Origin: Ascidiella aspersa | Taxonomy: Eukaryota | Length of the DNA stretch: 64,000 nt | Assembly (NCBI GenBank): GCA_963924565.1 | Contig: OZ004607.1 | Span: 25,358,001 to 25,422,000 of the forward strand | Direction: 5' to 3' | In this document: positions 1 through 52,831 of the stretch, piece by piece | Layout: each line of letters begins with the position of its first letter | How positions within the stretch are numbered: the first letter of the stretch is position 1 | Made by a program: the position numbers and the translations under genes | Notes under the pieces: generated by a model | Database searches by the model: none | Told to the model about the DNA's origin: nothing | The model's input: the letters and a program-made list of their open reading frames with translations, nothing else

Positions 1-3000
1 AGCCGAAATTAAAGAATTATCTTTGAAGGCTGACAAGCTTTCAGTCGAAAGAGCTCAATTTGAGGCGGAATGTGAAAAACACCTTAATTCAAGCTGTGAG
101 TTACACACAAGTTTAACCAAAGCTGAACAAGAAAAACTTCATGAATCTGAACGGTTACAGGAGAGTGTTGCGAAATGCATTGCCTTGGATGCAATAAATT
201 CACAAGCCAAGGTTGAAATAGAAGCAATGAAGCAAAAAATTGACCAAGGTTTGAAGGAAAAGGAACACCTTCAAACTGAACTTTTAAACTCACAAAGTTC
301 TAATGCTGATTTACATGCAACTTTAAAACAAATCGAAAAGGAAAAAGATGATATTGGTGAAGAGTTAAAACAAATTGTTTTAAAATGCACTTCCCTGGAA
401 GAAGCTAACAATCATTTTAAAGTAGAAATGGAAGCTATCAACAGTAAGCTGAAAACAGTTATCGATGAAAAGGATCAACTTGAAACTGATGCTTCACTGC
501 AAATAATTTCCTTTGCTGAATTACAAACCCAGTGTTATTCCTTAGAAGAAAAAGTAACTACTTTGGAAATGGAGCTGAAAATGTCACAGGGGTCAGCTGA
601 TGAAAATATCACTGCCCTGAGGTAATAAAATAAACTATTAAATGCTGGTATCAGTAAGCTAACATTTCCTTGTTTTATTAGCTAGACTAAAAAATATATA
701 ATAGCTTAAATTACCAGAAAACTGTAACTGCTTTTTACAGATGTGAAACCTCTGACTTGAAAGAAAAAATTGAGAAGCTTTTAGCCGAAAAGTTAGCAGC
801 CGAGCAATGTTTGGCTGAAGAGAAGAGTAATATTGAAACTCTGCAACTTGGCCTGGACAAAATCAAACAAGAAAATGCAGACCAGATTTCTAAAATTGAA
901 TCATTAGAACAGCTTTTAAACGCATCTGAGGATTGTGTTTCAAGGTGCCAATCTAAAATAAATGATTTACAGAAAATACTTGCTAGACCTAAAAGACAAG
1001 TATTTTTGTTTATAATACATTTCTATATAATTTAACATGTATCATATATTTGTCTTACATTTGCATATAAATAAAAACAATTGATTTGGTAAGATTATTT
1101 GTAGGATTATGTTTTAAACTGCATTTTATATAAAACTGCAGGTTAAAAGATGCCGAATTGCAGCATACTGGTCACAAGCAATCCCTTGCAGAAGAACTCC
1201 AATCTGTTAAAGATAAACTAAGCCAGGTATCTAGATACACTTTTAAGTAACAATTCTAGTTAGGTGGAATATTAAAATGTCATAAATAAACCGGACAACA
1301 GTAAACCTTAACATCATGACGATTATTTTTTACTTGGCAAAAAGTCTAAATTTTTCAAATTTCACATGTTAGGTGTTCGGTGTCAAAATTGTCTAAAATC
1401 TTTTTCAAAAAGACTGCTGATCGTAAGATTTGCTGATCATGGGCTGATTACTGTAAGGATTGACATATGTGACCAGTCAGGGGCATATTCACAAATCAAA
1501 AATAGAGGGGTTCCACATTTTCAACTAATGGAATTCCCCCATTTTTGGTTAGATGTTAATGAGTAATCACGCCAGAAAACAGTGACAGATATGACCTCAT
1601 TAAAAATAGGAAAAAACCTTATCAGAAACAGCCAATTATTGTCCAGTGAAAGCAAACCTTTGATTTCACCAATTGATTTTGGCACATTCATAGTTTGTCT
1701 ATCAGCAACACAGTTTCCTAAGTTCCATGCAAGAAACTATGCTAAATTACAAGCACACCTTTCACCACCTGCAATACAAACAAAGATACTTTCCCCATGC
1801 AACATCTTACCGCAGCTGTGTGCCAAGTCAGCTCAAGTCCAACCTGCGGTTGTTAAATTAAATGGCGTCAATCTACACTAATCATGTGGTATAAGAATAT
1901 GCCTGTAGAGAATATTTTTGTGGTAACTATCATTAAATACAAAATGGAGATTTTTAAACGCACCTGACAGTTACAGTTAGACCACTTTTTAAGAGAATAT
2001 AAAGTTAAAAAAGTTACACCAACACTGTATATAATCGCAAGCAGGGACAGCCAGGACATTAACTGCGTCTAACATGATGCTTTAACAAGAAAAAGCAATA
2101 AGGCATGATCTAGTGTTGATTATTGTGGACTATTTTTATCCTTTGTACATAAACTCATGTTTCATTGCAAAATTATTTCTGCGTATGGAATAAACCATTC
2201 TATTCACTAATCTGTCAAATACACACTATCCGATCAGCCAACCTGAACGAATAAAGAAAGGTGACAGAAAAAAAACATGTTGTGTCTGCATACAAGCGTT
2301 TGTGTTTGATTTTGGTTTCGCATTAGCTGCAGACGGGTGACCCATTCACATTAAAAAAAACTAATAAAAACAATAATAGCACTTGGAAAAAAGGGGCGCC
2401 TGAACTCCGAACCTTTGGGTTCAACTGATCATCAGCCAAAAAAAGTATCCTAGCAATTAATTGATGCAAAATATCATTTTTAGGACCTAAATTAGGTCAT
2501 AAAATTAGTTATACATCATGTGATTTTAAAACCCCTGTTTTTTGCAGATTGAAACTGAAAATCAATTAAAGTCAAAACAGTTATCTGATCTATATGCCGA
2601 AAAAGAAAAGTCAATGCTCGAAATTGAAACTTTGCAAACTTCCAGCACTGCGGTAACCTTTCTTGGTTTACCACTTCTATTTGTATTTTTTGTTTTCATG
2701 CCATTTATTTGTTCTTTAGAAATCATCCGAAAGTGAAGTCAAAATTACCCAACTACTGAAATTAAATGAACAAAACAACCTGGAAAAAAGCAATATTGAC
2801 TCAGAACTTCAGCAATTTAGGCTGAATTATTCTAAACTGCAGGAGGTCTGGCTTACTTTTATACAGGAGTTTAAGTATTTTGAATATTTACTGCTACCAG
2901 ATAAAACAGCCCCCAAAAAGGTTCCTTAAAGCTTCAAAACTACATTTGTTGTAGGTTTCAACCAAAGTAGTTTTCTTCAGCAGTTTTACTTTCATCCCCT

Positions 3001-6000
3001 TTTTTGATAACCCTCCATATGCTGCCGTAAGGACAGTTTCCCTCCGTATCCGAATCCTTTATGTTTTATTATTGATTTTTAGCTGCCCACAATTTAATAA
3101 TTTGTAAACATATTATTATAGTTTTGCTACTTTGAACTACCAAAGTGAAAAACATTGCCTGGCAATGAAGTATGCGCAAAAATATGTCACCATCTGCACA
3201 TCACCTGAGCTTTGTAGTCACACCTTATTGTTCATAACTTGAAAAGGCAGTGCATGAGCAATCACTATCTAGAGTATTTTAATAGACATTATTATAATTC
3301 ATTTCATGGTCTTAACTTAATTCCATGATAGTCAACTGGCTGTATTATTAAACTTTAATGTACTGAACCAAGTATAAAATTATATTTAACTGAACTGATA
3401 TTTCTTTCAGGATGAATGTGTTTGTGTGATCCATACTGTAATAATTGTTTGTGTTTTTTACCTGACTTAACATTGATGATTGGATGTTGTGACGTGCATT
3501 TAACGTATGTCATTTTGCTCAACCAATCAAACTACTAGGATTTATCATGTCTGATTGTTTGTTTGCTGTTATAACTTAAAGTTAGTTTGGAAACATATAG
3601 GCAATGCTGTGTTTAAATCCTTTTGCATTCTAAGTTTTTATAAAATTTAGCAATCAGTTTAAATTATATTATGATTTCAAAACAAATATTTTGAATGTTG
3701 AATTAGCATGAAATTTTACTTGTTAAAAAATATAAAAAAGTGCTCTATGTTTGAAGTAGTATACTGTGCCTGATGATCATTTTTGCCTGTTGACGATTTC
3801 TTTCTTGCCTTTGCTCCATAAACATCACAGTTATTTGTACTAATGCGGCCATGTTTTACAGAACCATAGTAGCCTTGAGTCTAAAGCTGGACAACTTAAC
3901 AATAGCATCGATGTTCTTAAGCAAGAAAAAGAAATGTTGCAAACTGAAAAAAATCAGGTAAGTCAAGTTTTTATATTTTTGGTAATAAAATCCAATCTGT
4001 AGTAAATATAACTATTAATATCGGCCAGGGTGTCCAACCTGTGGAATTAGGTGGACCTAAAATAGATTAATAACATTTTTTTAATGTTTTGAAATTGCTG
4101 ACCAACCAGTGTTAACAATTCATATTAAGCAATTGAGATGTTTGTTACACCCTATTTTGTAATGTCACAAACAAACTGAACTAAAACAAATAACAGGATA
4201 TTTTTGAGGATCTATATTGTTGGTTGTTGTTTGGATACCTTCTATAACAGGGTTGGGCAATTTTTTTTCAAAGCGGACCGCATAAGAAACAGAAAATGTC
4301 TTGGTGGGCCGTGTCAAAAAAGTCATTTCTAATACACATAATACAAAGTGTAATTTATGTTAAAATATTCTTTAAATAGCTTTGATTTGCCAAACTGGTA
4401 AGAGTTGGAATAGGCGAGAATGCCTTACATAAGTAGTGTATTAAAAATTTATTCTTAAAAATGAAAATAAATGTTAAAGCCTAATTTTGCCAAAAAAAGT
4501 TTTATGGAAAATGAGCCGCGGGCCTGATTATTGCTTGGTAGGCCGTACTTTGCCCAGGTCTGTTCTATAATAACGTATTGTAATAACTTTTGATGTTTAT
4601 TTAATAGATTGTCCAATAACAAGTGACTTGTTATGTGTAGATTTATTTCAGTACCTATTGTTAAACCAACATACAAATATTTTAGCTCACTGAACTGGCA
4701 GAAGTACTTCAAGCCAAGGTGAAAAAAATGGAAAAGAGGTAAATAACTCCGAAATATACATGATTTTTTATTTAAATCTTCTTCTAAATGGGCCTCTCTT
4801 AATACTATCATCTTCTATATAGGAATGAGTTAAATGCCAAGATTGTTAGAGTATAATTAATTATCACAAATCTATTAATTTATGCACCTTTTTTACTTTT
4901 CACCAAATATCTATGTTATGCCAGTATACTTTTACAAATGTGAAAGTATACAAAAATATTTTTATCTAAAATAATTTGGTCCATTTCAGCTTGCCGGACA
5001 TAGAAGAAAGGTAATATCAAGAAACGCATGAACTTATGCATGTTTTGCATGTCAGAACCTCCATTGTTTTGCTTTTATCATTATATTTCATTTATCTGAA
5101 TTTTTCTACATATTTGGCACTTTTCTTTCACGCCCCTAAACAGGTTTTTAAGCTTTCAGAATCGTTTTGTTATTTTTTCCTTTTTAAAACGCTATTATTT
5201 CTTTAATAAAGCTAAATCATGCGTATATTTTTTGTCATCATTTTTTAATCTTCCTGTTTTTTTTTATTCCTCAGCAACTTTGTTTACTTTTGTATTCACA
5301 TATCCAAAAATACCTGCACCGCCATGGTTTTCATAAAACATGTCCATTTCTGATATAAATGCATGCAACACTTTTTTATTTTATTATCGCAATTTGTTAT
5401 CTTTGTTCATTCCATACACGACAAACTTCCTAAAACTTGTTGTAAAATAGGGAGGCGGTTTTAAAGAAAGAGTTTTCTCAAGAACGAGAATCCCTGCAGC
5501 GATCCCTCGACATCACAACATCGCTTCTGGAGGAAAAAAACAAGGAGATGGATGCCTCCAATCGCGAGGTGAGTCGTTGTAATTTCTTGAGCAACTAATC
5601 GCACAAGCATTTTTTAAGTATACCTTTCCTTATTGTGAAATATCTAAATAGAGTTGGGTGTTATAACTAGTACAGTTTGTAAGCCGTTATCGTTGGTCAA
5701 ACTTCAGAAAGGGCAAGATCACAATTGTTTTTTATCTGCCATTGACTGAATGTAGTACTGTAGAAATCCTCAAATATAAAGTTGTTTTATACTGACAGAA
5801 TGCAAGCAATGGTGTCATGGTTGTTTCTCGATTGCTCACCTCTGAGTTATTTTAGATTAGTTGGTAGAGTGACGGGCCCAGTATGGCTGGAGGTCCTAGG
5901 TTTGCACCTTACCACAGGCTATTTGTTTTTCGGGCCTGGCTTGCTTGCATGATTGATAGACTGATTTGCTTAGTCTAACGAAGGCTAAAAGTAAGTAATT

Positions 6001-8635
6001 ACATTCGTAGAAATTTTCGGGCGAACATTTTGGCTGATTTATTTTAAACGCAGAATTAGGACGTATCCTTTTTTTAACAGGGCAGCAATTTCGGAAAACT
6101 AAATTTTATTGTTTGTTTGATATTTAGATAACATACCTGAAAGGTGAATTTGTGGTGCAAGAAAGTGTTAAGGAAAGATTGAAACAAACCGAGTCCGAAA
6201 AGGATCAGTTGTTTGAACAAGTTCAGCACCTCAAGCAACAAGTGAAAAGTGGAGGTAATTATTCAACGACTTTTTACTTACATGATTTCATCGTTTCTTG
6301 ATACATTGCTTGTAAACTGGCTTTAACTAGCACCAATGCCAGTCGCAAAAATAAAAATAAAATTTGACATGTCTAGTTTACAGAGCAAACAACATCGTAC
6401 CAATAGCACACAGGCATATACGACAAAGTAAACTTATGGAACGTATGAAAATATACATCAAAAACTAGCGAGTGCGGTGTGTGTATTACAATGCTTGGTC
6501 TCTCAATTCGTGTAAAACATCTTTGATGTTAAGCAGAGACTTCGCTGCCCAAATGAACCCAAAAACGTCGCACCATATGAAAACTAACCTTGGCTAAACT
6601 TAGTCTCCCTCCCCCCTGTTGCCACAGCAACCACGAACGGCGAGGGAGGCGCTGGAGACGGAGGAAGCGCCGACTTCCTGAACGCCGTCATCGTGAACCA
6701 GCAACAGAAGATCGCCGAGCTCACCGACAAGATCAAGGAGCTGGAAGACCTCGCCCTTAACGGTGACGCAGAGCTGGATGACCTCGACGAGTGAGTAGAA
6801 TGACGAAGTGTCCTTAAATACTCTGCTATTTTTTCTATTATTTATAATTCGAAGGAGGCATGCTCGTGTTTTAGTTTGGTAAAACGTTTGATATTAAAAG
6901 CGATCGGAAAACTTGAAAAAAGTATATATACATTCGTTTGACTGTTTTGTTATATTACAGTCAACCTTATGCGTAAACTTCTGGACAAATGCGTTAAACA
7001 ACATTGTTATGTGTATAGTATGTGGCCTACTGAATTAACAGAGCAACGAGTCATCTCATTGGCCTAAATGGCCTAAAACCAAGACGAGCACTTCTGCGGT
7101 CAAAACTTACATTGCAAAGTCTCCTAAAAAATGTCCTTGTTTGTGTAGCGAGCAGCGCCGCCAGTTGCCACCGCGCCTCTTCTGCGACATTTGCGATGTT
7201 TTTGACGCGCACGACACCGAGGACTGTCCCACGCAGTCGATGGAAGCCGAGCCGGACCAGGGCGCCGACACTAAGTACGCCCGAGGAGAGCAGCGGCCCT
7301 ACTGCGACGACTGCGAAGGTAACCCCACACTAGGTTTTTACAACAGTCCTGTTTGTGGATATGGTATTATTGGGTGCAAAGCCATACCCATGCGTGACGA
7401 GTTGAGCCCACAGGCTTATAGGCGTCATGCAGTCGAATAACGACAAAAAACGTGCAGAGCTTATTTGGAAAAAATGCATCGATATCAAGAAGTTGGTGTA
7501 TCAAAAGCTTGATGGCTTCATACATTTTTAACCACGCCAAATCGGGGCATATGCACGTGATATATCGCGCTTATTGCAAAAGTCTGCATATTTTTTGTTA
7601 CAAGTAAATACCCTATTTAACCTAGGCAACGCCGGTTATTTCTTCTAGGTGTATTATATGTGGCAAAATAAAACATATAAAATACGAGAAAGCCAGGCAC
7701 AATCTTTTGCCTGCTACCGGTCGGGTTGACAAGTTTGATAGCGGCTGTCAGTGATTTATGAAAGAAGGTATTCAAAGGAAATATATACTTTATCATATAA
7801 TAACCTACACAGTTAAGCCTATAAAATGTGACAGGTAAAACGTGTGAAAGGTAGAAAAATACATTTGTACTATTTATAAAATGTGTAACAAAATATGCTC
7901 ATAAACTTGATATATAACATATTATTTATAAAACTTGCTATTTTAAAAATAAGTTTACTTTTCAGGAAATTGTTAACTTTATTTTGAGTGATGGTGATTT
8001 GACAGTGTGAACTAAAAATCTAACTAACCAACATTATTGCGGTTCCATAACATTAATTGCTACTCAGTAATATAATATTAAAGTTAACTTATAAAGTATA
8101 CCTATTACCTATGCTGTACTGCCAAAGCTTAATTAAGTATCATAAGTAATCTAAGCGAGTGCTATTCGACTATTTTCCATCGCGACCCAATATTATCAAC
8201 TTTTATTAACTTGCGACCAACTTTTAACGATGGCCACAATAAGGTGTAGTGGCAAAATAATTAACACAACGAACACACGCAATGGACTTTAATTGAAAAC
8301 ATTTAGATCTTACGCACTTAGATTTTACGCCATGCAAGTATAATTTATACCAAATCGTACCAAAAATATTCATGCCAAATCAAATAAAAGAAGGTTATAT
8401 TTTCTCAACCAAAATTAAATCTAACTTAAATGCACGGCGCACCTGAAAGGCTTTGCAGCCCACCGGTTGAGAAGCATTGAACAAGGCATTATCTTAACTA
8501 CAAAAAAGGTGAACTTACCTTTTGAATTTAAAATACTACTCACCCGATGTACTCTGGTATTTAAAGCTTATATTTAATTTATTCTCAGTATTCGGCCACT
8601 GGACAGAAGAGTGCGAGGAAGAGCAAATGTACTGA
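1..8635 (+). CDS. CLIP1: CAP-Gly domain linker protein 1 (CLIP-170/restin), 3' part: coiled coil plus two C-terminal zinc knuckles
   Basis: Exons <1-621, 741-999, 1142-1226, 2548-2652, 2720-2845, 3862-3957, 4686-4738, (4990-5010 optional), 5451-5568, 6128-6254, 6628-6790, 7149-7318, 8589-8635, all GT-AG. Ends ...DFLNAVIVNQQ...PRLFCDICDVFDAHDTEDCPTQ...RPYCDDCEVFGHWTEECEEEQMY*, matching the CLIP-170 C-terminal CCHC knuckles. One phase conflict at 973-976 (see findings). Confidence 0.93.
1478..1800 (-). mobile_element. Decayed intronic copy of the hAT-type non-autonomous element at 28800-29814
   Basis: Starts caggggcatattca (cf. TIR caggggcgtatcca). Reverse complements of ~1500-1550 and ~1715-1790 match ~29744-29790 and ~29520-29590. 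Far end not defined. Confidence 0.6.
4248..4562. mobile_element. hAT (Buster-type) MITE in CLIP1 intron
   Basis: Ends cagggttgggcaa / ttgcccaggtctg; perfect 8-bp TSD ttctataa at 4240-4247 and 4563-4570 with central TA. Confidence 0.85.
4990..5010 (+). CDS. CLIP1: Candidate 21-nt cassette microexon of CLIP1 (adds SLPDIEE)
   Basis: ccatttcAG|cttgccggacatagaagaaag|GTaata. Phase 2-2, matching flanking exons 4686-4738 and 5451-5568; no stop. Confidence 0.7.
5026..5365 (+). promoter_or_regulatory. Rbfox-type intronic splicing enhancer cluster
   Basis: GCATG 5026-5030; TGCATG 5037-5042, 5046-5051 and 5360-5365, just downstream of the microexon donor. Confidence 0.6.
5853..5920 (+). repeat. Decayed tRNA-derived SINE-like head
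   Basis: tagattagttggtagagtgacgggcccagtatg...ggtttgcacc carries A-box/B-box remnants; homologous to 30681-30737 (-) and 40289-40310 (-). Confidence 0.5.
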
Positions 8636-16400: not shown

Positions 16401-19400
16401 GGTGCAAAATTATTATTTGTTTGCTCCGTTAAATGTTTTATTAGGGCAAGCGCATCCTGCCTTGTGTTACACGTGTAGTTTCGCTTGACCTATGACTTAA
16501 TTCTATAGCTAAACTAAAATTCCATACAGCTTTGGACCTGAAGGTTCAACGCTCTTACCTACAAATTGAATCTTACTATATGTGTCCAAATTATCCAATA
16601 AATCGATCAACCGAGTAATCATTTTTGACCAATACATCATAAAACCTTGTGATGTGTGGGATTAGAAAATGGATTAGAGTTGAAATTATTAGGGGAGTTA
16701 GTAATGTACTCAGGAATGGGCTGTTGGGTTAGGTAAAATGTTGTATAGGCCTGATTATGGTCATTTAGGACTTATTCCGACAGATTTAAGACCTATTCCG
16801 ATGTATACGTTATAACGACTATGAGGTCTTAGTCCTATTTTGGCAAACTGTGTAAACTTTCTTTTCTTGCTTACAAAAAATAGGAATCCAGTGCAGGTTG
16901 GTCAAAATCCAGGACTGCGGGCCACATGTGGCCATGGACAGTATTAACTGCTATCGACCGATGAACCTTGGCTAATTTGCGAAAAACTTATTTCGTTGGG
17001 AAGGTACAGTGTTCTTGTCCAACATATATTCAGAAAATATACAAGAAAAGCATGGAGGATTCATGGGTCGTGGGGCAACAGACCATGGATCCGGTAAAAT
17101 AAAATTGTTTGCCAACTTAGCTGCTTTTCAATTTGGTGCAAATGCTTTCAGCCAAAAGGCGTCGTGCATATTATGACATTTTTTTGCCGTTTGTTTGCGA
17201 AATTTGTTTGGTTAAACGATAAAAATTAGCGCGCTTTTAGAAAATATTTTTCTCACGCTTTTCTGTGTGACTATAGAAACTATCGCCGTGTGGACACGAG
17301 CTATCTATAAAGTAATGTTCCTGTGAAGTCCATCTAGTAACTAGTTATTTAATTTTTGCGTTTTACGTCTTTGCAATACGATCCCAATAATTTATTTTCA
17401 AACTCATGGTGGTTGTATCGGGGAATGTGTTTATTACGTGTGCAATATTTTTTCGAGATCCACGCGATTGAACTTTTCCACAGATGCTTATTTTTATGAG
17501 TTCGCATAAGATTAGCGTTTTTTTCTACAATTACTTGTTTCATTACGTCACGTTATAATGTAAACACTAAACTAATACTAACTTATTGTTTTTTTATCCA
17601 GCGAATATACGCTTATAAAAATAATGTGCACCAAGGTGATGACAATATTGAAACACCTGATTTAGTGATTGCGGCTTGCAGGAAAATCAAAATGGTTTTA
17701 TTTGCCCCCCAGAGCAATTTGAGTTTAACAACCCTGGTGTAACTGGAAAATACTTGTTTGATTCTGCTTTTCAGAGGTAGTAGAATTGTAAACAAGATAA
17801 AGGCATAATTAGATCTTATGCAATAATACCTCTTTAGGCAGAATAAATCACGTTTTAGTTGAGGATAAAATTCGCTTCATATGCACATTAGCTCAAGTCA
17901 TGAGGAGAGCCCAGCAGTGATTAAGGTCGAAAGTCTGAATAAACAACAGTCCACGTATTTTTTTGCAAACGAGACAAAACAATTTGAGACTGTGTTAATT
18001 CCTTAACAAAACGCAGCAGAGCGTTTTATGTATTTGTGACCTCTTTTTCATTACGTCAGCAAATCTTGTTTTCTTTAAAATATTATTCGGCGAAGTTTAT
18101 TACTGATGATTTGGGACTAAAATAGAGAATGATAAGCTTGTAATTTCAAACAAGTTATACTCTCTTAATTCGTAGTGACATATAGGTATATTTGCAGGTG
18201 CTGTTTTTACAGGTGGGAGTTAGTTTTTAATTGCGGTTAAAGGAGTGTCAGCGAATCTTTACAGCAAGGCGTCGTGAGTACCACGGTACCCTCTAAATTA
18301 AATGAAAGCGCTGTTAACAAAATGTAAAGATATGCACTTTTCACACATATCTAGACTTTTAAACATCAACAGACAACATAATATGAGAAATATAACAGTT
18401 TAAATGACTTTTTTGGCAAACTGAAACCAGCTGTTTTGCGCATTTCTTGAACGCATTGCAGCCTCCTTCTTCAATGTATTGACACTGGTTTAAAATTGTA
18501 CTTTTGCGACGATGTTGACCTAAATAACAGCCTTTGGTGCACCTCCAGAGGTCTCTGCCCTTTGAAACGTCCATAGAATGGAGACTATTTAGTGAAAGAG
18601 CCACGTGCATCTTACCGTGTCGGAACTGTGTTTATAAACGTCGGTTGTTGCTGTTGCGACACAAAAGATACGAATCGCTCGCCTTCGCTCTGCTCATCGT
18701 AAAATGTAAGCTCACTAGTCACTATAATAGTAATCGGTGTTACTGTTTTACTGCAGGCGGCTGTCGTTGCGTAGGAAATCATGTAAGCGCCACAGTCGAT
18801 GATATATTTGTTGCAGTGACACTGAGCTATTCCGACTATTTTATTCGATCAGTTATACAACAGACTGTTTATCTATAGGCGGCGTTCTAAGTAAGCATAA
18901 TTGTGCTATTACATGCCTCAAATGATTCACTACGATTCTTTTTAATACGTGAAAGGTAAAAGTAGGCTAACACCTTAAGTTATAAAGGTAATAGCATACC
19001 TTTCTGTATAGTTTTAATTATAATTGAAATCCCTTTTTACTGGAATATGTTGTCTTAAACCAACATAAATCCAGTGTTTTTAAATATACTCAATAGTCAT
19101 GCTCTACGTATTTTTGAAGGCTCTTTGTATGTGTTGTTATTCAAAACTACAAAACGCAGGCCGCAGGGTTATTTGTTTACCTGTATTTGTGCAGCCTCTT
19201 TGTCAGCAGAAACGCCAAGTCGTTTTTCTACTGCTGGCCAAAGTCCGTGTTGCTTGTTGCGAAACGGAGTAGAGGCTTGCTGACTGTGCTGCAGTGGCTT
19301 AGTTGCGTCACAAGCTGCTTGCGATTTTGCTCTGTGCTAAAGCGCACATCGTCAACAACAGCGCTTTCCGTCAGAGAGGTTACTCTCGGTCATCGCCGAG

Positions 19401-19952
19401 AGAGTTTGTACCGCTATATCAAAACGGGTAAGCCTGTAACCAGGCGTATCGAGCTTGTTTGCGCATCGACGACGTACTGTGTTGTTCAAAGACTGAGAAG
19501 AAAAGTACTGGAGCCAGCGGTGATTGCAGTGCCTTTGTCTACGAAGTGCAAAGCAGAACACACATATGATCAAGCTACAGGTCAGAAGCGCTGCTCAACT
19601 TTCTGGTGAAATTAAATATTTATTGCTCATTGTTGGAACTAGGAGTCTGTCGTGGTTCACATGAAGTGCAAGGTTTTTGTGTGCTACGAGTGATTTGCCG
19701 TGCATTTGATACGTTAGTGATCAAGCAAAGTGTTGAACAAATTTAATTACGAATTTATGCCGTGGCTTTAAACTTCAGCGCGGCTTTTGTAATTGCGGCC
19801 ATTTAATTAACCGCGAATTATATTTGATTGCCTTCGAACCCTAATTTTTAGTATTCATTGTATGCGATATATATCTATCGAAAATTTTCAACCTGAACCT
19901 TAGAATATTGAAGTAATTAAATATTGTCGTTTTGTTGTAGGTTTTGAGGTAT

Positions 19953-22900
19953 ATGGGCATACTGACCGTCATGAAACTAGGAGTTTTTGCTGTTTCTGCG
20001 TTATCTCTGCTTATCGCTCTAACATGGATTGTGATTTACTGTCCAGTCGGTAAGCACATAGGCTATTTACTACTGTTTTGGAAGCATGGCAGACATCACA
20101 TGTAGCCTACCTAAATATATGTAGCTAGTTTTCAAGTTTGAAGATTTGGATTTGTGGCCACGATTTTAAGATAAACGGTTAAAAATGTTATAGTCACATA
20201 TCAACAAGATATCTCTAAACATCGCGCTACGCAATGAATTATTTTCAAAACCAAACAAAACGCTCGAGTATTCGATTACAGCGTTTTTGTGTCCCACGCA
20301 CAAGCCGGTAATTGGTTACAATTACGTGACAAATACTAGTCTAGGCCTAAGCTTAAAATGTGGTGGACTGTGGGCATGTAGGATTAGACGGTAAAAAGGT
20401 GTTTCATGACCCACATTGCGGGACTTATCCAATAAAAATCTTGGTCAAGCGTTATCAAGTTGTTGACTTTGGGTTTTCTTTGTTAGAGAAGTCCGAAGTC
20501 CAAACAATAGATTTGCTCTCTCACGTGTTGGGCAGGTTCTCCGTGCTTCACAGTCTACTGACTTTGTTTTTCAGGATTTGTCAAAGGAAAACCTGGACTT
20601 GTGGAGGCAAATGTACATACCGGTAGCAACAGGTCAGTAGGTCAGAATCAACGATATAACCGTTACCCGTTTGTTTGAAATATACACCACTCATTACTTT
20701 GTAGGCAAATAAATTATAATCGAGATCCAATTTTCTTTTGGTCTGGTTTACACTGTAGTGTGACGAACCCTGCTTGGGTTGAATAAGTGGCAGAATTGTT
20801 TGTTCAATTTACCACAACATTATGCTTTCTTACGTCTCTACTAAAGCAAACAAAAGCGCATATCTTCGGCTAACCGGCTTACATATGGTCTCAGTTTAGC
20901 AAACCGTGACACACTCGAATTATACAAAAAAAATGAACTTTGATCACTACCACTGTTAACGCACTCGCGTTGTGAGTAAGTTATGAGTGAAAAACGATAC
21001 TGAATTTTTGTCTTGTATGTTGTATCCCTTTAGAAATGATATGTCGATGGACGAGTACTTCGACCACTACGAGGAACAACTGGACAGTGAAATAAAACAA
21101 ATAAAATCCAACGGAAAGACGATGGACAAATCACTCAAAACAAATAGCAGAAAGGTTTGTTATTGTTGTTTAGGCACGTGTTATTTTTTTTTACTTACAT
21201 ATTGACATAAATTTATCTAAAGACAAAACCTTGTCCAGTTTTGTGTAGAAAGCATTAACTTAAAAACTTACATTATTGCAGTGTAAATGTTAAACTTAAA
21301 AGTAGGTTTTTACGATTTAAAAGTCCAGCATACACGTTTACAGGCAGAGGTTCCCATGGAATTGTACACAGATGATGCCTTTCAGTCTATGATAAGTCAA
21401 CTTAATAAAAGGCAACTTAATGGATACGAGTTCCTTGCAGAGTCTATGAATGTCACGATATTTCGAACACCAAAGGGAGTAAGTTTTAAATAGTTTCTGT
21501 ATAGATCTTGTTTTGATAGCGTACTCCTGATGTTAATAAAATGTTTTCAAAAAAATTTAAACTAAAATTTGTGTGAGTGTGTCACTTCAGACAACTTTAG
21601 TATAAGCGCAACGTAATGTAGGTCCAATCACAAATTTGTTTGCTATACACTTCTGGTGCTAAAGTAAAAAAAACGTTTTGGAAAGTCTTGTTTGTCTTTG
21701 ACATTGCTAATGAAATTTTTATTTCATCAGAACGAGGGTTTGTACGAATACAAGCTTTATGCGACTTTGCCAGACGCTACCCCAGATATGATAGCCGCCG
21801 TCTTTCTGGACAATAAGTACCGAGTGGTGTGGGACGAATATGTTACAGGTAAGGTCACCTGTCCCAATATGATTTCTGATAACAGGGATACGCAATATTT
21901 GAGTACTGTAATGCAACACCCGTGTTTGCACAGACCAGGTGGAGACTGTTTTCTGTCGCTTAATCTTCCGGACTTCGCCCTTCAAATTGTAAACGTGGAC
22001 AAAGCACTTTGGAATGCTTAACGATAGCTTGGCTGCTGTAATCGTTCGGCCACTAACTATTTTTGCCTTGCGATTAACGGTTAATTCATAATGCAATAGG
22101 CTAAAATGGTGTTATTTGATTGACTTACTTCACTCGTCTTATGGCAATAATTTGACTTATTTTATCTAGCAATAAATTTCTAAAAAAAATGTTTTTGTCT
22201 ATTCAGAATTATACGTGGTGCAAGACAACGAAAAAGGTCCTGATGTTATATATTTCAACGTAGACTTCCCCTGGCCGCTTGCCAACAGAGATGTATGTCT
22301 AGATATAAAATCATGCTTAATAGTTTTAAAATCGAATTTTAGTTTTCCTAAATAGTAATTGTTATGCCATACGGTATATCACAGTCAATCTAATTTCTAT
22401 ATCGTAGAGCAGGGGTCACCAATTTTTGTATCATAAAGCGCCAGATAACGTTTAGGTCCGATGATCTTTGGCCTGATAAATTGTTAAGATGGCCAAACGC
22501 TGGCTGGGTATAAAATTTTGTGTCGAATGTTAACAATAAGAAGATGATGGTTTGAGGTTGTAAAACGTATTAAGAATGTGAAAGCCCACACATAAGTAGG
22601 TATCATTGTGTATCATTTTTTGTTTCGAATAATCTCGATATAAATTTTCAACATAGTGAGAAGGCACTGAATCAGTCTTAACAAGATGAGTGTATGAAAT
22701 GGTAAAATTTAGTTTGAGATTGCATCCGACAACACTTTATCTTAGGTTTATCTTAAATTAGGGCAATATGGCGAGGCAAAATTAACACCGCCGGTCGATC
22801 CTAGAACGTAAGGAGTACTTTTGTTTCTACTCTTAGTACGTATACGCAAGAGAAACGCGGAAAGTCAAACAAGACGGCAAAGAATACATTGTCATCGTCA

Positions 22901-23823
22901 TGCACAGCGTTCAAAAGCACAATGTGCCAGAAGTTAAAGGTGCTATACGGGTCAATGATTACCACCAGTCCCTTGCCCTGGAGCCGTGGAACGGCAAGGG
23001 CACCAAGGGTAAGTTAACGTTAAAGTATCCGACCTGGGATGCAGATTCGTTTCACCTTACCCGTACCGGTAAGCCGGTCAGGTTAAATGCATATGCCCAA
23101 CTTAACGCCGGAATAATAATCGCTAAACTTACTCCAGAATACATTTGTCTAATATTTAGGGTCGATAAGGGTTTGAACGGAATATAAAACAGTATATAAG
23201 AGTACAGATCACGAATGGCATAACATGTAGGCTTGACGACAACACACATTTGCTGTGAAGGCCGCGCGAAACATACTGCATACACTGTGTGACGCCAAGT
23301 GGTCGCACAGAACGCGCCTTGTCACTCGCTTTGTTTACAATTGATCAACCACAGCGCCGTTATGCCTGTTAATTTTATGCTTTAGTTATAAATGCTGTTT
23401 ATGACGGCGTCATTTTCTCCCCACCGTCTAGTCTGCTACTTAGGCTTAAGTTAGTTATTTTTTTTGTGGTTTTACTCGTGGCTCGCAAACAAAAGCATTG
23501 TGTATTTGTGGGTCTGATTTTGTATTAATAAACTAACTGGTTTTGCCTATTTTTTTGCAGCGTTTATTCAGTATTACGATAATCCCAAGGGATCGATACC
23601 ATCGTGGCTGGTTAACTGGGCTGCCAAGGTAAACATTTCTCGTAATATTTAATAAGATTGAACGTTTGCGTTCAACAACACTTGTCTTCCTATTTTTCTG
23701 TACTTATTTCCTGTGTGTGTTTAGACTGGAGTTCCAGCTTTCATGAAGGATTTGCAGCGCGCTTGTAAAGGTCTGCCGGCGTTCCTGGAAAAAACCCACG
23801 GTAAAGCAGTGGTGATCGAATGA
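19953..23823 (+). CDS. PCTP: Phosphatidylcholine transfer protein-like START-domain protein with hydrophobic N-terminal extension (~317 aa)
   Basis: Exons 19953-20049, 20575-20632, 21034-21154, 21344-21478, 21731-21848, 22207-22292, 22837-23008, 23561-23628, 23725-23823; phases consistent. Motifs GLYEYK, YRVVWDEYV, FPWPLANRDYVY, IRVNDYHQSLA and DNPKGSIPSWLVNWAAKTGVPAFMKDL match STARD2/PCTP. Confidence 0.9.
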
Positions 23824-26791
23824 AAGCAGGTGCTGCGCGTACAGCCGTACACGTTGCCTATTAACAAAACAACGCATAGAGATGCGCCTATTTCGATGTT
23901 TTCTTTCTTTAACCAGACCGATATACGCCATTTTTTCTAAGCTTGATAATGTGCACAAGTGTTGTCGTTGACACTTATTTCCAACCTACCTTGCTTGCTA
24001 AAACTTAATGAGATTAATTCCAATGATGACCTACCGTCAGCTGTAAACAAACGGAGATAAATTTATCTCGAAAAAGCATTTTATTAAAAACTGACGATTT
24101 TCGAATTTAGCTAAATCTCTCCAGCAGGTCAGCCTGCGATTTTCCTCATTTAAAATCGGCAAGCGGATTTGTCTGCGATTTGACGCACTGTGCATCTTAG
24201 TTTCGAGCTGTGCCTTATTGGATTTGGTCGCTTTATGTCAGGATTTTTTTACAAATTGTCAACGTTTACGAGTGCGTGGTTGCTGTCGATACGAAGTCTT
24301 ATTAGGCTAACGATTTTGATTGCGTAACACAGCTGTTTATTTTTTTAGTATTGTTTTGCATATACGTACGGCTTTATTTTGTTTTCTGCCTTTTCGAAAG
24401 CCCACTGAGTTTTAGGGGCGAAAAATTACACTTTGTTGTACTCCACAGTTATAGCCGTAAACGAAATTTAATTATGTGTGATTATCAGGTTATATAATAC
24501 ATATTCACTTTCATCTTTATGCGGTTTTCCTGGTAATGCTGCTTTCCAAATCCACCATATTACACCACTCGCGTGCATACGTTTTTTATTTAACAAGCTG
24601 GCATACCACAGTGTTCAAGTTTACATGATCGTGTTTTGCATACGATAGAACCAATTTACGTAGGCTATACACGTTTTGTTTGTTGTTATTACAATTGACC
24701 AGTTTTCTAGTGAATTTTCGTAATATTTTTTCTTTGCTTAAACTGTTTTATAGATTTGTTTCTTAATCGACCTAAATTTACATTGTTACGCAATGAAATC
24801 AATTTAATGCCCCACCTCTCTAAATGTAATTAGCCGTGTGATAAATACATTTCATAATTTAACGCCATAATCAATGCAAAATCGTATTGGCGGTTTGTTA
24901 ACTGATTTGTTTTTTGTTCTATGCATTTTTCGTGTTGTGCTTCTTATTCAACAGAACTACCACATGCTTCTCTATGGGTCAGGCGATACACTTAACTTTG
25001 CCCAATAAAATTTGTGTTGCTAAAATTATTACTACGAGCGACCTTTAGCCATAGCTGCATTGATAAAACATATTTCATTTTTCTTACAACAATTTATCTC
25101 AGGACAACGTTATTTACCTATAATCATCAGCAGTGATCATAATATGAACGAAGTTTAGCTAGTAAGGCCTCTGTCTGGGGATTGAGATTAAAAGTCGCTA
25201 GTGTGCTATAGGTCTCGATGCTCTAAATAAGTGGTTCGAGCTGTTTGGCTCTGGCAACCCCATTTTGTGTTTATAGAAACTTACCTATCGTATTCAGTGT
25301 CTAAACTTATCCACACTGTTGCTGACACGAGTCTTGGTATGTACGCCAACGGTTGAAGCAGGGCTTTACATGCGGCCAACAAAACAATCCAAGGCCACAG
25401 TCGCACTCCGACTCTTCAGTCTTTATATACCACCTTTTTATGTAACAAAATTAGGGTCCTCTTATAGGAGTGTCACATAACTTACCCAAATTTATTACCA
25501 TATGCTTTACCCCTTTACAATTTACAGTTTGCGACCTTATCGGTCTCGAATTTCGTAGGCTCTTGCATATGGGCAAGTATGACTGGGAACGTGGGCACGT
25601 TGGACTTACTCGAGTTTCAAGTCCGACTCCATTGAAAAAACTGAATCCGTCGGGTCCCGAGTCCAACTCCGATTTCGCAGCCCTATGTTTAAGCCTTCTT
25701 TTCGCTTTCGCCGTTTCGCGTCATTTACGTTTTTGTTCTCAATAAAAAATGTAGGCTATTTAACCAGCTGACCATCTGGCTTTTCATAAGACCAGCCTAT
25801 ACTAAAATTTAGGCTTCATCAATTAAGTGAAATCAAGCCTAATGACACGATTGCTTCACAGGCGCACGTACCAAAGTCGTACCATAAACAACTTGGTAGA
25901 TATGTAGTTCTATTAGTTTTGCTCCTTTTATTGCAAGTTTTAAGTTTATATTGTTCGTTCTCTGTTTTTTTCGCCACCAGTTTGGGAACCACATGCAGTC
26001 TTAAATAAACAATCGGTATAGAAAGTACTTCAGAATTTTACTTAAATACGAGATATCCTCAATACCTTTCTTGGCCATGAGCGGTTTCGAAGACGGGAGA
26101 CAATGTGTACAATATAGGGTTGCATACGTTAGAATTTTCCCTGACATGTTAGGGAAAATTTAGTGTTGAAATCTGCGTCAGGGAGTAATGACAAAATCTG
26201 CTTATATGTCCGGGAGTTAACCGTACTTGTAAATATATATCGCGAATGCATTCACAACATCGAAAACGATAATAGTTTAAAATTTGGTTCTTTCGTAACT
26301 TTGTATTCACAGGACGTAACTTGTACGACGTGTGTGAGCAATGCTATTCATTGTTACGTCACACATTCTAGTTTAATACCTTTTACTCATTTTGTTTTCG
26401 CTTTAGAAAAGGTTTTTGTGTACTGATGCGTTCTATTTTAGTAAGTTTTAGTTAGAAACGTTTATCCAGTAGTATGTTTATTCATTTTTATACTAAAGGT
26501 AAATGATGACAAAACCGAACAAGCAAGATTACATTTACCAAATGCAGATAAAACAAATTGGACCGACGGCTTCGCCTACTGTTGAAACATATTCTACTTG
26601 CTTTGAGTAAGAAGTGTCCGAAACTAATTATTTGGCAAACACACAAATTTTTTACCTGGCTAAAGTGCAGTTTATTAGATTACACAAGAAGTTTTTGTGC
26701 ATTGCGCTTCCGTTTTAGTCAGTTTTTCATGAAACGTTTCCTAAGCATAGTTATTAGTCTTCGATACTGTCCAAATGTGGGCCGTATAGAG

Positions 26792-31789: not shown

Positions 31790-32460
31790 ATGGTTTAGGC
31801 CAAGCTGCTGTAAAACACGCCAAAACAAAACACTCGATCTGGGGATTGAGGTGGACAAAAGAATCAGGCGACGTAAGAGAATGCCTGAAGATCTGGCAAA
31901 AGATGCCGGACTTTTATCAGAAGAAGAAATTGTGCGCGTTATGAAGAATGTATTTGATCGGCTTCAACATGAAATGTCAACACGCTTTTTCACGACTAAA
32001 AGACCTAAACAATAAATTTGGATATTTGCTGGACGTTTAAGACTCTTCTATCTGACACAGATGAGGATGCAATACGTCGAAATTGTGCAGATTTTGCAAA
32101 TTTCTACGACACGGACATCAATGGCAAAGATCTTTTCATTGAAATTGGTGATTGCCGAATGCTACTAAAGCGCTACCAAACATTCCTTTGGAGTTTCTTG
32201 GTTTTATTGTGTTTGATGATGACGTATTTCCGAATCTGCGACTTCCGCTACAAATTCTGTTAACAATAGCAGTTTCAGTTGCAAGCTGTGAGCGGTCGTT
32301 CAGCAAATTGAAACTTATTTTGTCTTATCTGCGTGCATCAATGGGACAGGATCGTCTCAGTAATCTTGCTATTCTTAGCGTTGAACGAGAAACATTGGAA
32401 ACAATAGATTTCGTTGACGTGATTAACCAGTTTGCGACAGTGAAATCAAGAAAAATAATC
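31790..32460 (+). pseudogene. hAT transposase C-terminal fragment (dimerisation domain), frameshifted
   Basis: FPNLRLPLQILLTIAVSVASCERSFSKLKLILSYLRASMGQDRLSNLAILSVE is the hAT C-terminal signature; split across ORFs 32018 and 32152. Confidence 0.88.
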
Positions 32461-32489
32461 TATAGTTGTAAATCATTCATGTTTGGCAG

Positions 32490-33417
32490 TAAACCCGTTT
32501 ATATGCACGTTTAAGCCGGATTTGAATCTGTTTCGTTAATTCATTCTCTCTCGTTTTGGTGCTGGAATTCTCTCGTTTCTTAATCGGTCAAAAGGAGTGG
32601 CTTTCAATCCGTTCGCCGCTTAATCTGTTCGTTTCGCGGACGGCCGAAATCGTTTAATGAAGAATAACCTGCTTTAACGCAGTAAACATCACGCCACTTT
32701 TGAGGCATTATGACGTGACACGAACGGCTAGTCGTAGACAAAACAACAAGTTTAGCGCATAAGGAAAGAATATTACATACACTCGTTAGATACTAATTTG
32801 TGACAGAGGAGCTAGAATCCACAAAGTCGAACATTATTTGGGTTAGGATACGGGTTTGGGTAGGTTTAAATAGTAATACTTGGCCCACTCTCACCCAAAT
32901 ATTGTACATTGCTAAAAAAATCCTACGCTGTGGTAGGATTTTAGGCCAGCGCCAAATACAGTTTTCATTAGTCATGTTTGGTACATCTCATCAACTTCTT
33001 TTGTCCACCCTGCCTTGTATATAGCGTTGACCAGCACACATAAGCTTAACTTTCATGCACTTATATACTGTGTGCCAGGTAAACTGAAGCACTATACAGT
33101 CAAAAACATACTTCGGCAAGCCAAACTCCATCGGCAAACCAAACTCAAGTAATTCTTGTTTTTTTTTCAATTTTATGTTTATAAAAACGAACAAGCAGCA
33201 ATAGATTGCTACCGCAAGGAGTAGCCTAAGCCGAAAAATCGGTTGTGCGTCAGAGGTTTACTGGAATATTACGTATTAATGCACATCAATGCAGTTTGTA
33301 CACTCAAGCTGGCTTGAATTTCGCGCCATGTAATTCCGACGCTGGAACGGATTACTTTTCAATCCGGATTGAACCTTAATCTAATCTGCCCGCGAAAGGT
33401 GCATATAAACGGGCTTA
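32490..33417. mobile_element. PIF/Harbinger-like non-autonomous element containing a nested MITE
   Basis: Inverted repeat taaacccgtttatatgcac / gtgcatataaacgggctta (18/19 match); contains a GGCGC-family MITE copy at ~32810-32952. Confidence 0.65.
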
Positions 33418-34882: not shown

Positions 34883-37800
34883 ATGAATAGTCAAAATCCT
34901 GTATCTATTGTGAAAGATTGTCAAAACACAAAAAGAAATTTTGGTACAGGATCAGTATATGGTAGGCTTGTTTTTATTTTAAATAATTAGGTACTTTGAT
35001 TAATTTATTAATGAATGACTTCATAAGCTGTAATGCTGTTGTATTATAATGAAACTGTGGTTGTTTGTTATGCAGAAAATGTGTCTTGTGAGTTCGGATC
35101 TGCTAAATACTATGCCCTTTGTGGGCTAGGAGGTCTTCTCAGTTGTGGAATAACACATACTGCATTTGTACCGCTTGATGTAGTTAAATGCCGTATTCAG
35201 GTAAGTAAGAGAGTTTTCATAGGTTACACTTTGTTGTAGCTTTTTACCAATAATAGTAGTATTACGTTGTAAGGGCTTTATGAATTGCTTTATAAGCAGA
35301 ATTATTTTGATTCTCAAAAAACAAAGATACATTATAAACATCTGTAAGCCTAATTTAAAACTGAAAAAAAATCTTATTTTAGGTTGAGCCTGAAAAATAC
35401 AAGAACACCAGTCATGGGTTTAAAGTTACCATAAGAGAAGAGGGAATTCGTGGTCTTGGTAGAGGTTGGGCCCCAACTTTGTTTGGATATTCCATGCAAG
35501 GTGTCTGCAAATTTGGATTCTATGAAGTTTTCAAATCTGTTTATAGTGATATCTTGGGCGAAGTAAGTCCATTTTGAGTACATTGTTTGTTTAATATGAT
35601 ATAAACAGTTTGGTAAATTGCAGTATAATTTGCAATATTGATTTGTGTACATTGTTTAGTCAAATAATAAAAGTAGAAAGGGTCTTTACAAGATTATTTT
35701 AGGTTTCGTTAGACTCTTGAATACCTAGCTCCATAAACCGCACATTTTATGAACTGCGTTGTCCAAGACATTTCTATGGGTTTTAATGGGCACAGTAGTA
35801 TATAAGTTCATAATGAATCATTTTTTATTTTCTTATTTGTAATATAGCACAACATTTTTAGAACATTCCAAATTAATTGTTGGTTTTGTTCTAGCATTTC
35901 TAAATTTATCTTGACTAGTGCCACCAAAACTAGGTTTAATCACTTTTACAACAACAACAACATAAATGCAAATCACAACATTGGCATTGAATTATAATTT
36001 GCACTCGCCAGTGGTTTAAGTGTCTACCAATCAGCACTAGTGTAGACTAAATAACACTTTCTAGAAATACTGGCTCGCTTTCTGCAATATACACAGAACT
36101 TCTCTAAACTGTCAAATCAGCATGTTTATTTTCATGTGTAGAAGGTCAAATGGAATGCGCTATGTTCTTACATACGATACGTTAGAAATTAGTGCATTTC
36201 TAAGCAAAAAGATCTATGACAATTAGTGCACCCAAAGGATCAAAAGTCTGACTTTTAGACTTTAAGGTCTTGGACAATGCACTAATTTGACTTAACAATG
36301 TGCTTAAGAACAATAAGTTTAATAATACTTGACCCACTTAAACCCAAACGCTAACCAGCTTCCAAACCAAAATAATGTGCGTTGAGATAATAATTACATA
36401 AATGCTTTAGGTCCCAATACCTCAATTTGTGACGTAACAATCCTATATACCATGGACGAGAAACTATTTTATGCCCACCGAGTTTTTTTTTTTTCCCCAG
36501 CGTTAAAATAATTTATTTACTGCAAAATAACACAAACATATATACTATAAAAACACGTAATAAATGTAATTAAGTGTTTTTTAGAGGTCGTAACGTGAAG
36601 TTTAATCTACCCTTCAACACAGCATTTAACTCAAAATGTAAGAAGAGAAAAGTTGTATAAATGCACCTACTTTCTAATTATTTAACAAATCAGTCATTTT
36701 AAATTAAACTAACTTAGTTAGTCAATGCAAAGCTTGTTTTTGGACCCTGCCAGTGTATTTTTTGTATTCGACTCTGTTTTGTCAGTTGTCACTACATTCA
36801 CCGAGATGATTCCTAAATTTTATTTTAATAATGCATTAATACTATTTGCCAAATACGCCTAGCTGAATACTGGCCTAAAAGTTGACCTTCAGTAACCCCG
36901 TAGCATACCTTGTGCGTTTTACGATGGAATGTTCTTTTGCAAACTCTTTAAAGAAATTGGGAAATTTCTGCACCAGGCATTCCAAGTTAATTGCTAGCCC
37001 AACAGCATTTGACGGAAACTGACAGATTAGACGAAGGTTAGCGTCAAGTAATTGGCTGCCCGCTGACGCTAACGCCGCACCACATGGCTACATATATAAA
37101 GCAGCACAGTAATTGTTTCGCAAAATCCGCTGTTTTCTTTGTAAAGGAAACCTCATATCTGTGGAGAACTTCGGTGTATCTTGCTGCCAGTGCTTCAGCT
37201 GAGTTTTTTGCTGATATAGCACTTTCCCCAATGGAAGCCTGCAAAGTCAGAATACAAACTCAACCTGGTTATGCAAGTCAGCGTAAGTCTTTTGTTAAAT
37301 AGATACCATATATCAGGTTGGCAGAAACTGTCAGCCTTTTGGTGTCGAGCATTTTTTTTTTGGTTACCTTATGTAAAACCCCAAAAAACATATTTTATTA
37401 AAGTGGAGAAGCATGGCCTGGTACCCCCTGGATCAGCCCATGCAACTGTCATACTTGTCTTTTTAACTGGAATTACAACTATTAAGATTGCTTTTTAAGG
37501 CAATATAGGAGTACTTACAAACAATTCTATGGTCAAAACTGAGTAATTTTTAAAATAATAAGCAATCTATCTGCCTAGCACTGACCTTTTTCCCCACTGA
37601 ACAACGTACTTTGCAGTTACTTTTTTCAGAATTGCACAACAAAATCAATTCCCGCCAACTGTTTTGCGGAGTGTTTCTTCCAATCCGTGCTTAAAAAAAT
37701 ATATTTGGTTGAATATGTGTGGAAATAACAAGTGTTTTCTGGAAATAAATCTTCAAAGATAAATAAAAAAAAATGTTTCCACAAATTTCTTCGGTTTTCT

Positions 37801-38538
37801 TGCTGATTGCTCGGCTGCCATAGTCACCAAATCGTCAGCATTCTGCCATACTGCATGTATTTATTTATTTTTATTGTGATGACTACAACTAAAGAATAGC
37901 TGCTTTCAATAATTTAAATGTTTTGACAAATTGAATGTTTTTAGGTTTTACAAGGGCTTGGTGCCTCTTTGGAGCAGGCAAATTCCCTACACAATGATGA
38001 AGTTTGCTTGTTTTGAGCGTACTGTTGAAGCTCTCTACAAGTATGTTGTACCAAAACCCAGAGAGGAGTGCAATAAGTCTGAACAGCTTGCGGTAACATT
38101 TGTAGCAGGATACATTGCTGGTGTGTTTTGTGCAGTGGTGTCTCACCCTTCCGATTCTGTGGTTTCAATGTTAAATAAAGAAAGTGGAAGCTCTTCAATA
38201 GAAGTGCTAAAAAAGCTTGGTTACAAAGGTATGTTTCACTTTAAAAATTAAATACTCCAAGAAAGATGTTTAAAAGTATCTTTAACTTGAACATTATTTT
38301 AAACATTTTTTCTTTTATAAATTTGACTGTTTTAGTCACGGTATATTCTTAATTTTCAGGTGTTTGGAAAGGCTTGTCAACCCGAATCTACATGATTGGT
38401 GCCATTACTTCAATGCAGTGGTTTATTTATGACTCTGTAAAAGTATATTTTCGAATGCCGAGGCCACCACCACCGGAGATGCCAGAAACATTGCGACTTA
38501 AGCTTAAGTTAGAGTCCCAGAGTAACAGTGAAGGATAG
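34883..38538 (+). CDS. SLC25A3: Mitochondrial phosphate carrier paralog A (divergent; apparent 46-nt frameshifting deletion in exon 4, possible pseudogene)
   Basis: Exons 34883-34961, 35076-35200, 35383-35562, 37147-37282, 37945-38228, 38360-38538. Motifs [68 protein letters not shown]. Exon 4 is 136 nt versus 182 nt in paralog B. Confidence 0.85.
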
Positions 38539-46811: not shown

Positions 46812-46891
46812 GAAAATAGATATATTAATAATACATGACCGTGATTTTATTTCAGAAACATATCAATTTTTGTAGGTGGGAAAAAGTAACA

Positions 46892-52820: not shown

Positions 52821-52831
52821 AAAAATAGTAT

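Follow-up and report, generated by a model that had tools for sequence, protein, structure and literature searches.

Does this locus encode a START domain of the phosphatidylcholine transfer protein (PCTP/STARD2) type that is carried on a membrane-targeting leader and, if so, on which side of a membrane would that domain come to lie? The gene in question is located within a 64,000-nt stretch of Ascidiella aspersa DNA (contig OZ004607.1, positions 25,358,001 to 25,422,000; hereafter the window), and an earlier note on this DNA proposed that it specifies a lipid carrier of the secretory pathway. Animal START proteins are generally regarded as cytosolic or mitochondrial carriers, in agreement with the available part of PMC3127847.

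Three leader exons (19941-20049, 20575-20632 and 21034-21154, all +) precede the START domain. They possess AG/GT ends and, as previously claimed, keep frame from ATG 19953 to supply 92 codons, before joining in frame with six START exons. The uncharged run following a Lys, put at about 22 residues, numbers 22 when counted, and the acidic helix, the NSRK|AEVPMEL junction and the single NVT sequon are likewise present in the translation. From ATG 19953 the frame comprises 317 aa, with the Met of MEL (ATG 21356) at residue 97 when AEVP is counted; this model appears correct in its frame and probably not in its start. Exon 19941 begins with in-frame VLRY (19941-19952), so these codons are coding, and a mini-exon upstream (19566-19580, +; RNA depth 1.3 in bin 19369-19635) encodes MIKLQ and then presents a phase-0 AG|GT donor. 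The identical MIKLQ opens the proteins of Phallusia (P0001), Clavelina (X2, P0012) and Ciona (P0024), the N-ends of which follow the pattern MIKLQ-VL[RK][YF]-MGIL, and MIKLQ-type extensions also occur in the divergent leader proteins P0029, P0223 and P0225. Because VLRY is in frame and MIKLQ is shared with Phallusia, Clavelina X2 and Ciona, the true start is likely to be ATG 19566, which lies 9 codons upstream of 19953, is the earliest ATG downstream of 19300 and yields a model of 326 aa.

Two AG|GT donors are found in 19400-19760, one after MIKLQ (19580) and one after MKCK (19672). The latter, a weak phase-0 GTTTTT, closes a candidate alternative first coding piece, MKCK (19661-19672, +), which resembles the N-ends of Clavelina X1 (MQGCRKK) and P0026 (MRRYCK) and falls in a bin (19636-19902) with an RNA depth of 0.26. 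Should splicing bypass the 19580 donor, the frame opened by ATG 19566 would extend over 32 codons to a TGA that overlaps the MKCK start codon at 19661, an overlap that could possibly form a uORF-coupled switch between N-termini.

The remainder of the gene is arranged as follows, all on the + strand. The anchor exon (19941-20049) encodes VLRYMGILTVMK, comprising a 22-residue hydrophobic helix, predicted to act as a signal anchor, and an invariant W-x3-Y-C-P. It is succeeded by a first stem segment (20575-20632) that is variable and predicted to be disordered, and by a second (21034-21154) that harbours a conserved acidic helix, with an invariant Y-F, and a basic stretch. START exon 1 (21344-21478) opens with AEVP-MEL and contains the NVT sequon (residue 137 in the 326-aa numbering); exon 2 (21731-21848) has F at human Y72 together with R78, W81 and D82; exon 3 (22207-22292) has F at human W101; exon 4 (22837-23008) bears the equivalents of Y114, Y116, Y155 and Q157; and exon 5 (23561-23628) those of W186 and W190. 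The last exon (23725-25010) encodes the C-terminal helix and includes the TGA (23821-23823), a 3' UTR of ~1.2 kb and an AATAAA at 25004.

Expression was assessed using one stranded RNA run bearing the same species label, of which about 6 in 100 was sampled, giving 225 aligned reads, and splice joints were called at >=3 reads, i.e. at least three. The transcript lies on the + strand, with coverage that starts in bin 19102-19368 and stops near the AATAAA at 25004; depth over the last exon is 11-24 until 24975 and 0.4 thereafter. All five START joints are covered by reads. Linkage of the leader to the exon at 21344 is borne out in part, as joints 20632>21034 (5 reads) and 21154>21344 (13 reads) were recovered, whilst 19580>19941 and 20049>20575 are absent from the RNA joints at the 3-read threshold, in bins with a mean depth of 0.3-1.3. 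Two of the four leader joints are, then, seen directly in RNA, and two rest on homology.

The two joints of the helix exon that lack called reads count against the anchor reading, and they are what favours the alternative that the leader is untranslated or unspliced, with a plain cytosolic PCTP made from MEL. We regard this as barely credible, given that the leader is conserved at the protein level over 18 sequences, that two leader joints were read and that Met occurs at MEL in only 9 of the 18. The same leader stands in frame with START in annotated proteins of Phallusia, Clavelina, Ciona and Styela, and is for this reason counted as non-chance; its exons are coding, and the gene is expressed and conserved amongst tunicates. 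Translation of the leader, as assumed in the earlier note, is upheld by this conservation. The cytosolic isoform envisaged from the internal Met is not, both on account of the frequency of that Met and because a separate leaderless PCTP gene exists. The proposal that MEL corresponds to the human PCTP start is approximately right: it lies near the ancestral start, but is displaced by 4 residues when the human alignment is extended without gaps, and by 1 residue relative to the start of the leaderless paralog.

With regard to lineage, an exon query retrieved 10 relatives and a profile search 46, the latter comprising 18 leader-bearing sequences, 27 without the leader and a Ciona savignyi fragment that starts in the stem. 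A START tree of 53 rows unites the 18 leader proteins, that of the window among them, with 100/100 support; this group falls on the PCTP side, and the 10 STARD7-like rows stand away from it. A rebuilt 52-row tree, containing a corrected model of the leaderless paralog, returns the same groupings, with the leader-clade split at 99.1/100 and a STARD7-like split at 100/100 that leaves the leader proteins outside. On its START sequence, the window protein is a PCTP/STARD2 paralog and not a STARD7; the trees agree with the earlier note, where grouping with STARD7 had been named as a refutation. The named proteins nearest to it come from ascidians. START identity to the Phallusia ortholog is 83%, and to PCTPs such as those of human (1LN1), amphioxus, molluscs and fish, and the leaderless paralog, with which it shares the START fold, it is 40-41%. 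R78, D82, Y114, Y116 and Q157 of PCTP are kept in the leader clade, but this clade differs from PCTP in an N-extension of ~105 residues with its 22-residue hydrophobic helix. Pfam START scores for the orthologs P0001, P0024, P0027 and P0032 are 62-91 bits against a cut-off of 22, one window exon matches 1ln1, and the best Foldseek match of a Phallusia model is also human PCTP 1ln1 (E 1e-19, rmsd 2.1, TM-score 0.89 on target), placing the protein in the START superfamily with a modelled helix-grip fold.

The leaderless paralog is a second PCTP gene on C5 (G000:C5:21602064-21613230) that encodes 216 aa, has an in-frame stop 21 codons upstream and retains Y72 and W101; its Phallusia ortholog begins at the same Met. 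Thus the START-only, soluble format of ~215 aa typical of PCTP is found in the 216-aa C5 product and not in the 326-aa window model. Amphioxus PCTP measures 219 aa in most entries, and one amphioxus Pctp is given in the available part of PMC3184775. In the rebuilt tree the leader clade and the C5 paralog are not recovered as a clade, with no resolved branching order near the root of the PCTP side. The last intron of the window gene is missing from the C5 gene (L012-L013), whose START exon 4 is interrupted by an additional intron and whose final intron spans 8.4 kb.

A STARD7-like gene is present separately on C2 of the same genome, which rules out the window gene as a STARD7 replacement. The two types of protein are alike in having an N-terminal membrane helix, a stem and a PC-type START (PMC5562819, available part), but STARD7 forms a separate clade, is only 28% identical, has its own gene on C2 and bears a mitochondrial presequence. 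These features bear upon the suggestion that the window protein is mitochondrial, its basic, acid-free N-tail and helix forming a short presequence with stop-transfer, as in a second STARD7-like protein. Whilst there is no acidic residue in its first 40, and STARD7 does combine a presequence and a helix (same portion of PMC5562819), the trees and the C2 gene speak against it, as do an N-tail of only 17 residues with a hydrophobic moment of 0.10 (0.10-0.21 in full-length rows; a crude test) and a strongly hydrophobic helix, so that we hold a mitochondrial destination to be very improbable. A further upstream exon carrying a mitochondrial presequence was considered and rejected, as relatives start with MIKLQ and no ATG lies between 19300 and 19566.

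The leader itself appears confined to this clade in the material surveyed. None was found in the 27 non-leader relatives from the profile search, amongst which two carp rows have hydrophobic windows that lie inside START; of 147 further rows, likewise top-ranked matches, 7 have a 19-residue window with KD >=1.7 (at least 1.7), none being leader-like; and no leader match outside the leader group occurs among the best 150 of 2067 matches in a library of 1.84 billion. Longer amphioxus and hemichordate models (P0218, P0234) bear extensions unrelated to the leader. In Pfam the leader gave sub-threshold matches only, and residues 1-100 had no usable Atlas match, a result that carries no weight on novelty. 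When a source of the leader was sought, the anchor sequence proved to be single copy in the genome. A metagenome scan yielded four near-identical genomic loci (L021-L024) with a matching acidic-helix exon, the anchor exon not being reached within their 3-kb flank. Because the old start region lies 4 codons into START exon 1, behind a phase-0 intron, the leader was likely gained as new upstream exons.

Alignment of 18 leader proteins (from the window, Phallusia, Clavelina, Ciona, Styela and marine sequences) reveals that the helix, K-[22 residues ending YC]-P, is kept in every full-length member, the window's protein included. The 22-residue spacing from K17 to C39 holds in 19/19 rows, and M16, K17, W34, Y38, C39 and P40, as well as the YF of the acidic helix, are invariant in 18/18. 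Across 17 relatives, identity to the window protein is 55-98% for residues 1-40, compared with 55-83% for START and 15-53% for the stem. Since residues 1-40 appear constrained about as strongly as the START domain, this argues for a retained anchor over a cleaved signal peptide. The stem ranges from 58 to 90 residues across the clade and is roughly 65 residues long in the proposed model of the window protein. AlphaFold2, given a 35-row alignment, models the Phallusia ortholog at a mean pLDDT of 86.7, with a continuous helix at 3-38, a loose region at 44-59 (pLDDT <50), the acidic helix at 65-85, a second loose region at 87-97 and then START.

Two observations concern the stem. Judged against the general FFAT consensus, a reading of EYFDHYE as an FFAT motif was rejected, the Asp position being D in only 11/18 rows and the next position never small (Y in 8, H in 7, F in 2 and K in 1). 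The marine sequences P0029-P0032 constitute a long-branched leader subgroup in which the stem is longer (75-90 residues) and more acidic, the shared site lacks a sequon and two rows have M at position 101; they may derive from a different tunicate class or from a further paralog.

That the protein is a membrane-targeted START carrier, as the earlier note put forward, is the best reading of these data. We give somewhat better than even credence to an uncleaved anchor, with START facing the secretory lumen or the cell exterior. Three weak signs would support a lumen-facing domain: charge on the N-side of the helix, avoidance of Cys and a retained sequon. The hydropathy scales and the charge and (-3,-1) rules used herein are general rules and not trained predictors. 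The C-minus-N charge is -1 to -4 in 10/10 rows with a full N-end, and each of these has the type II feature of one N-end helix with more positive charge before than after it. K17 (18/18) and R/K8 (9/9) precede the helix, with no conserved basic residue after it. The bias is small, however, and among nine rows starting MG or MK four have a difference of 0 or +1; the Clavelina annotation includes one such short-start isoform (X3).

This near-zero difference in short-start rows would suit a reverse (N-out) anchor, whereby the helix would fix the protein to an organelle such as the ER or Golgi, a cytosolic START would span a contact site on its stem, and Cys39 would be palmitoylated. The tethered lipid-transfer domains known to us mostly face the cytosol. 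The hydrophobic stretch is long, covering residues 10-39, and contains a single Lys, the model has one helix at 3-38, the length of the stem would be appropriate for contact-site reach, the subgroup P0029-P0032 has no sequon, and STARD7 provides a precedent on mitochondria (PMC5562819, as available). Even so, the conserved basic residues lie before the helix, with none after it, both alternative first exons add more, and Cys avoidance would be unexpected for a cytosolic domain; an N-out tether is therefore, in our judgement, unlikely, albeit deserving of serious attention.

Cys avoidance, which would fit the preferred lumen-facing anchor, is apparent as 0/886 sporadic Cys changes in the leader clade, compared with 26/2060 for leaderless PCTP (Fisher p 1.3e-4) and 17/979 for STARD7-like proteins (p 1.9e-5), these being changes counted by parsimony and not independent trials. 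Two Cys that are frequent in leaderless PCTPs (12/20 and 17/20) are missing in 18/18 leader proteins, which have one Cys or none after the helix; for comparison, two presumed CERT-like START regions of the same genome have 9 each, and a presumed HAD protein of the window has 4. Counting against Cys avoidance as a sign of the lumen, STARD7-like proteins gain Cys though they reach the intermembrane space. The NVT sequon, previously offered as a luminal sign, retains only part of its force. A sequon (N-x-S/T) occupies the shared site in 14/18 leader proteins, including one T>S swap, but 4/18 are without it and the same NVT is found in a leaderless 210-aa PCTP (P0051). Sequon density is not higher in leader proteins (19 in 5520 versus 22 in 6118 residues), and its persistence is unremarkable because the 14 rows that bear it share 86/202 invariant columns.

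Evidence for the lumen side fits equally well with a signal peptide or shed leader, from which a soluble START carrier would be secreted to the lumen, blood or tunic. Type II proteins can undergo intramembrane shedding, and the (-3,-1) rule holds inside the helix at residue 33 (A-L-T33|W; 18/18), at 27 (18/18) and at A31 (14/18). Plasmodium, moreover, exports START proteins with PC transfer activity (PMC5113031, available part). At residues 34-44, by comparison, the rule holds in 0/18 rows; the candidate sites sit inside the helix ahead of WIVIY, a polar c-region site is lacking, and the leader is as conserved as START. Release at the dibasic RK, as formerly suggested, finds no support, as RK is peculiar to the window protein at this position, furin-type motifs are lacking and RxxR is found in 0/15 fully scanned linkers, with a further 3 rows scanned only partly. 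A secreted carrier consequently seems improbable to us, more so than a cytosol-facing tether.

The lipid-binding pocket of the leader clade is altered in a consistent manner. In human PCTP the phosphate ligands are Y72, R78 and Q157 and those of choline W101, Y114, Y116 and Y155 (PMC10182070 and PMC13525633, available parts). R78, W81, D82, Y114, Y116, Q157 and W190 are kept in 18/18 leader proteins and Y155 in 15/18. Human Y72, however, is F in 18/18 leader proteins and Y in 20/20 leaderless PCTPs, and W101 is F or M in 18/18 as against W in 20/20. The window protein accordingly keeps 5 of the 7 PC ligands, with Y72F and W101F. As Y72 is also missing in STARD7-like rows, its change is compatible with PC binding. 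STARD10 likewise deviates from PCTP at human 72 (L) and 101 (Y), but is far more distant from the window protein (E 2e-12 versus 2e-50 for PCTP) and, to our knowledge, has no hydrophobic leader. It binds both PC and PE (PMC3127847, Table 1, available part). Given that Y72 and W101 are changed clade-wide, and that STARD10 also differs at these positions, a shifted or broader headgroup preference is likely in the leader clade. Such paired changes offer a natural experiment on the determinants of headgroup choice.

Taken as a mechanism, a duplicated tunicate PCTP would have added front exons that became an uncleaved type II signal anchor, inserted in SRP fashion with its basic 17-residue N-tail in the cytosol. 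The anchor would hold the START lipid pocket on its ~65-residue stem in the secretory lumen or outside the cell, where the protein might be N-glycosylated at NVT and possibly form a disulfide dimer via the invariant Cys39. It could then exchange PC, and perhaps PE or another phospholipid, one molecule at a time between the luminal leaflet and a nearby acceptor, for which a lipoprotein, a luminal vesicle or an apposed membrane are candidates, with the C5 copy presumably keeping the cytosolic PCTP job. The fullest form of this proposal, a luminal or extracellular tunicate START carrier with a retuned pocket, the orientation or sorting of which is perhaps switched via its N-termini (MIKLQ, MxCK-type and bare MGIL), is tentative, and we rate it as falling short of probable.

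No description of an anchored tunicate PCTP was found in the openly accessible literature searched; database names of the orthologs are only 'phosphatidylcholine transfer protein(-like)'. Comparable architectures exist elsewhere. In plant minimal START-TM proteins a PCTP-like START is accompanied by a predicted membrane segment or a pair of them (PMC8455945, available part), but these proteins would represent an independent lineage, with no leader-profile match among the best 150 of 2067. A luminal window protein would have its parallel in the Plasmodium PFA0210c/Fam-a proteins, START proteins of the secretory pathway with PC transfer in vitro, the signal peptide being linked via a variable low-complexity region, although these are soluble, exported proteins of a parasite, with Fam-a described as being without a transmembrane domain (PMC5113031, as available) and no leader homology seen. 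If true, a lumen- or outside-facing START, conserved in the vertebrates' sister group, would extend the family to a further compartment; such a protein would be a candidate to load secreted particles with phospholipid or to carry it from one apposed outer leaflet to another. Whether START faces the lumen or the outside could be put to the test in Ciona, which has an annotated ortholog (XP_018669162.1). Were START to face the cytosol, the protein would still be an anchored PCTP of a kind not previously described, having converged on STARD7 and the plant START-TM proteins. A Ciona 'Phosphatidylcholine transfer protein', KH.C10.229, which may be either paralog, is listed as an endodermal-strand-enriched gene (PMC8256262, Table 1, available part).

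Other loci of the genome and window were also noted. Two loci that we take to be CERT-like from their motifs, L001 (G000:C3:38190692-38194321) and L002 (G000:C7:13152732-13156346), are single-frame and apparently intronless, with START at the end of open frames of 585 and 571 aa, respectively; of the two, that on C7 has diverged further and resembles a duplicate of the retrocopy type. Within the window, positions 2-7437 contain the 3' part of a coiled-coil gene with two Cys/His knuckle motifs at its end, presumably CLIP-170-like. Two similar genes ~20 kb apart (35027-38248 and 56576-57640), which we take to be mitochondrial phosphate-carrier-like, differ in their exon breaks, and a single-frame ORF at 46832-47566, ~225 aa from its likely Met, is assumed to be HAD-family-like. 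Mobile elements are presumably represented by a hAT-like remnant (31791-32511, +), a DDE-transposase-like remnant (41160-43173, -) and a broken LINE-like element (49514-53690, -).
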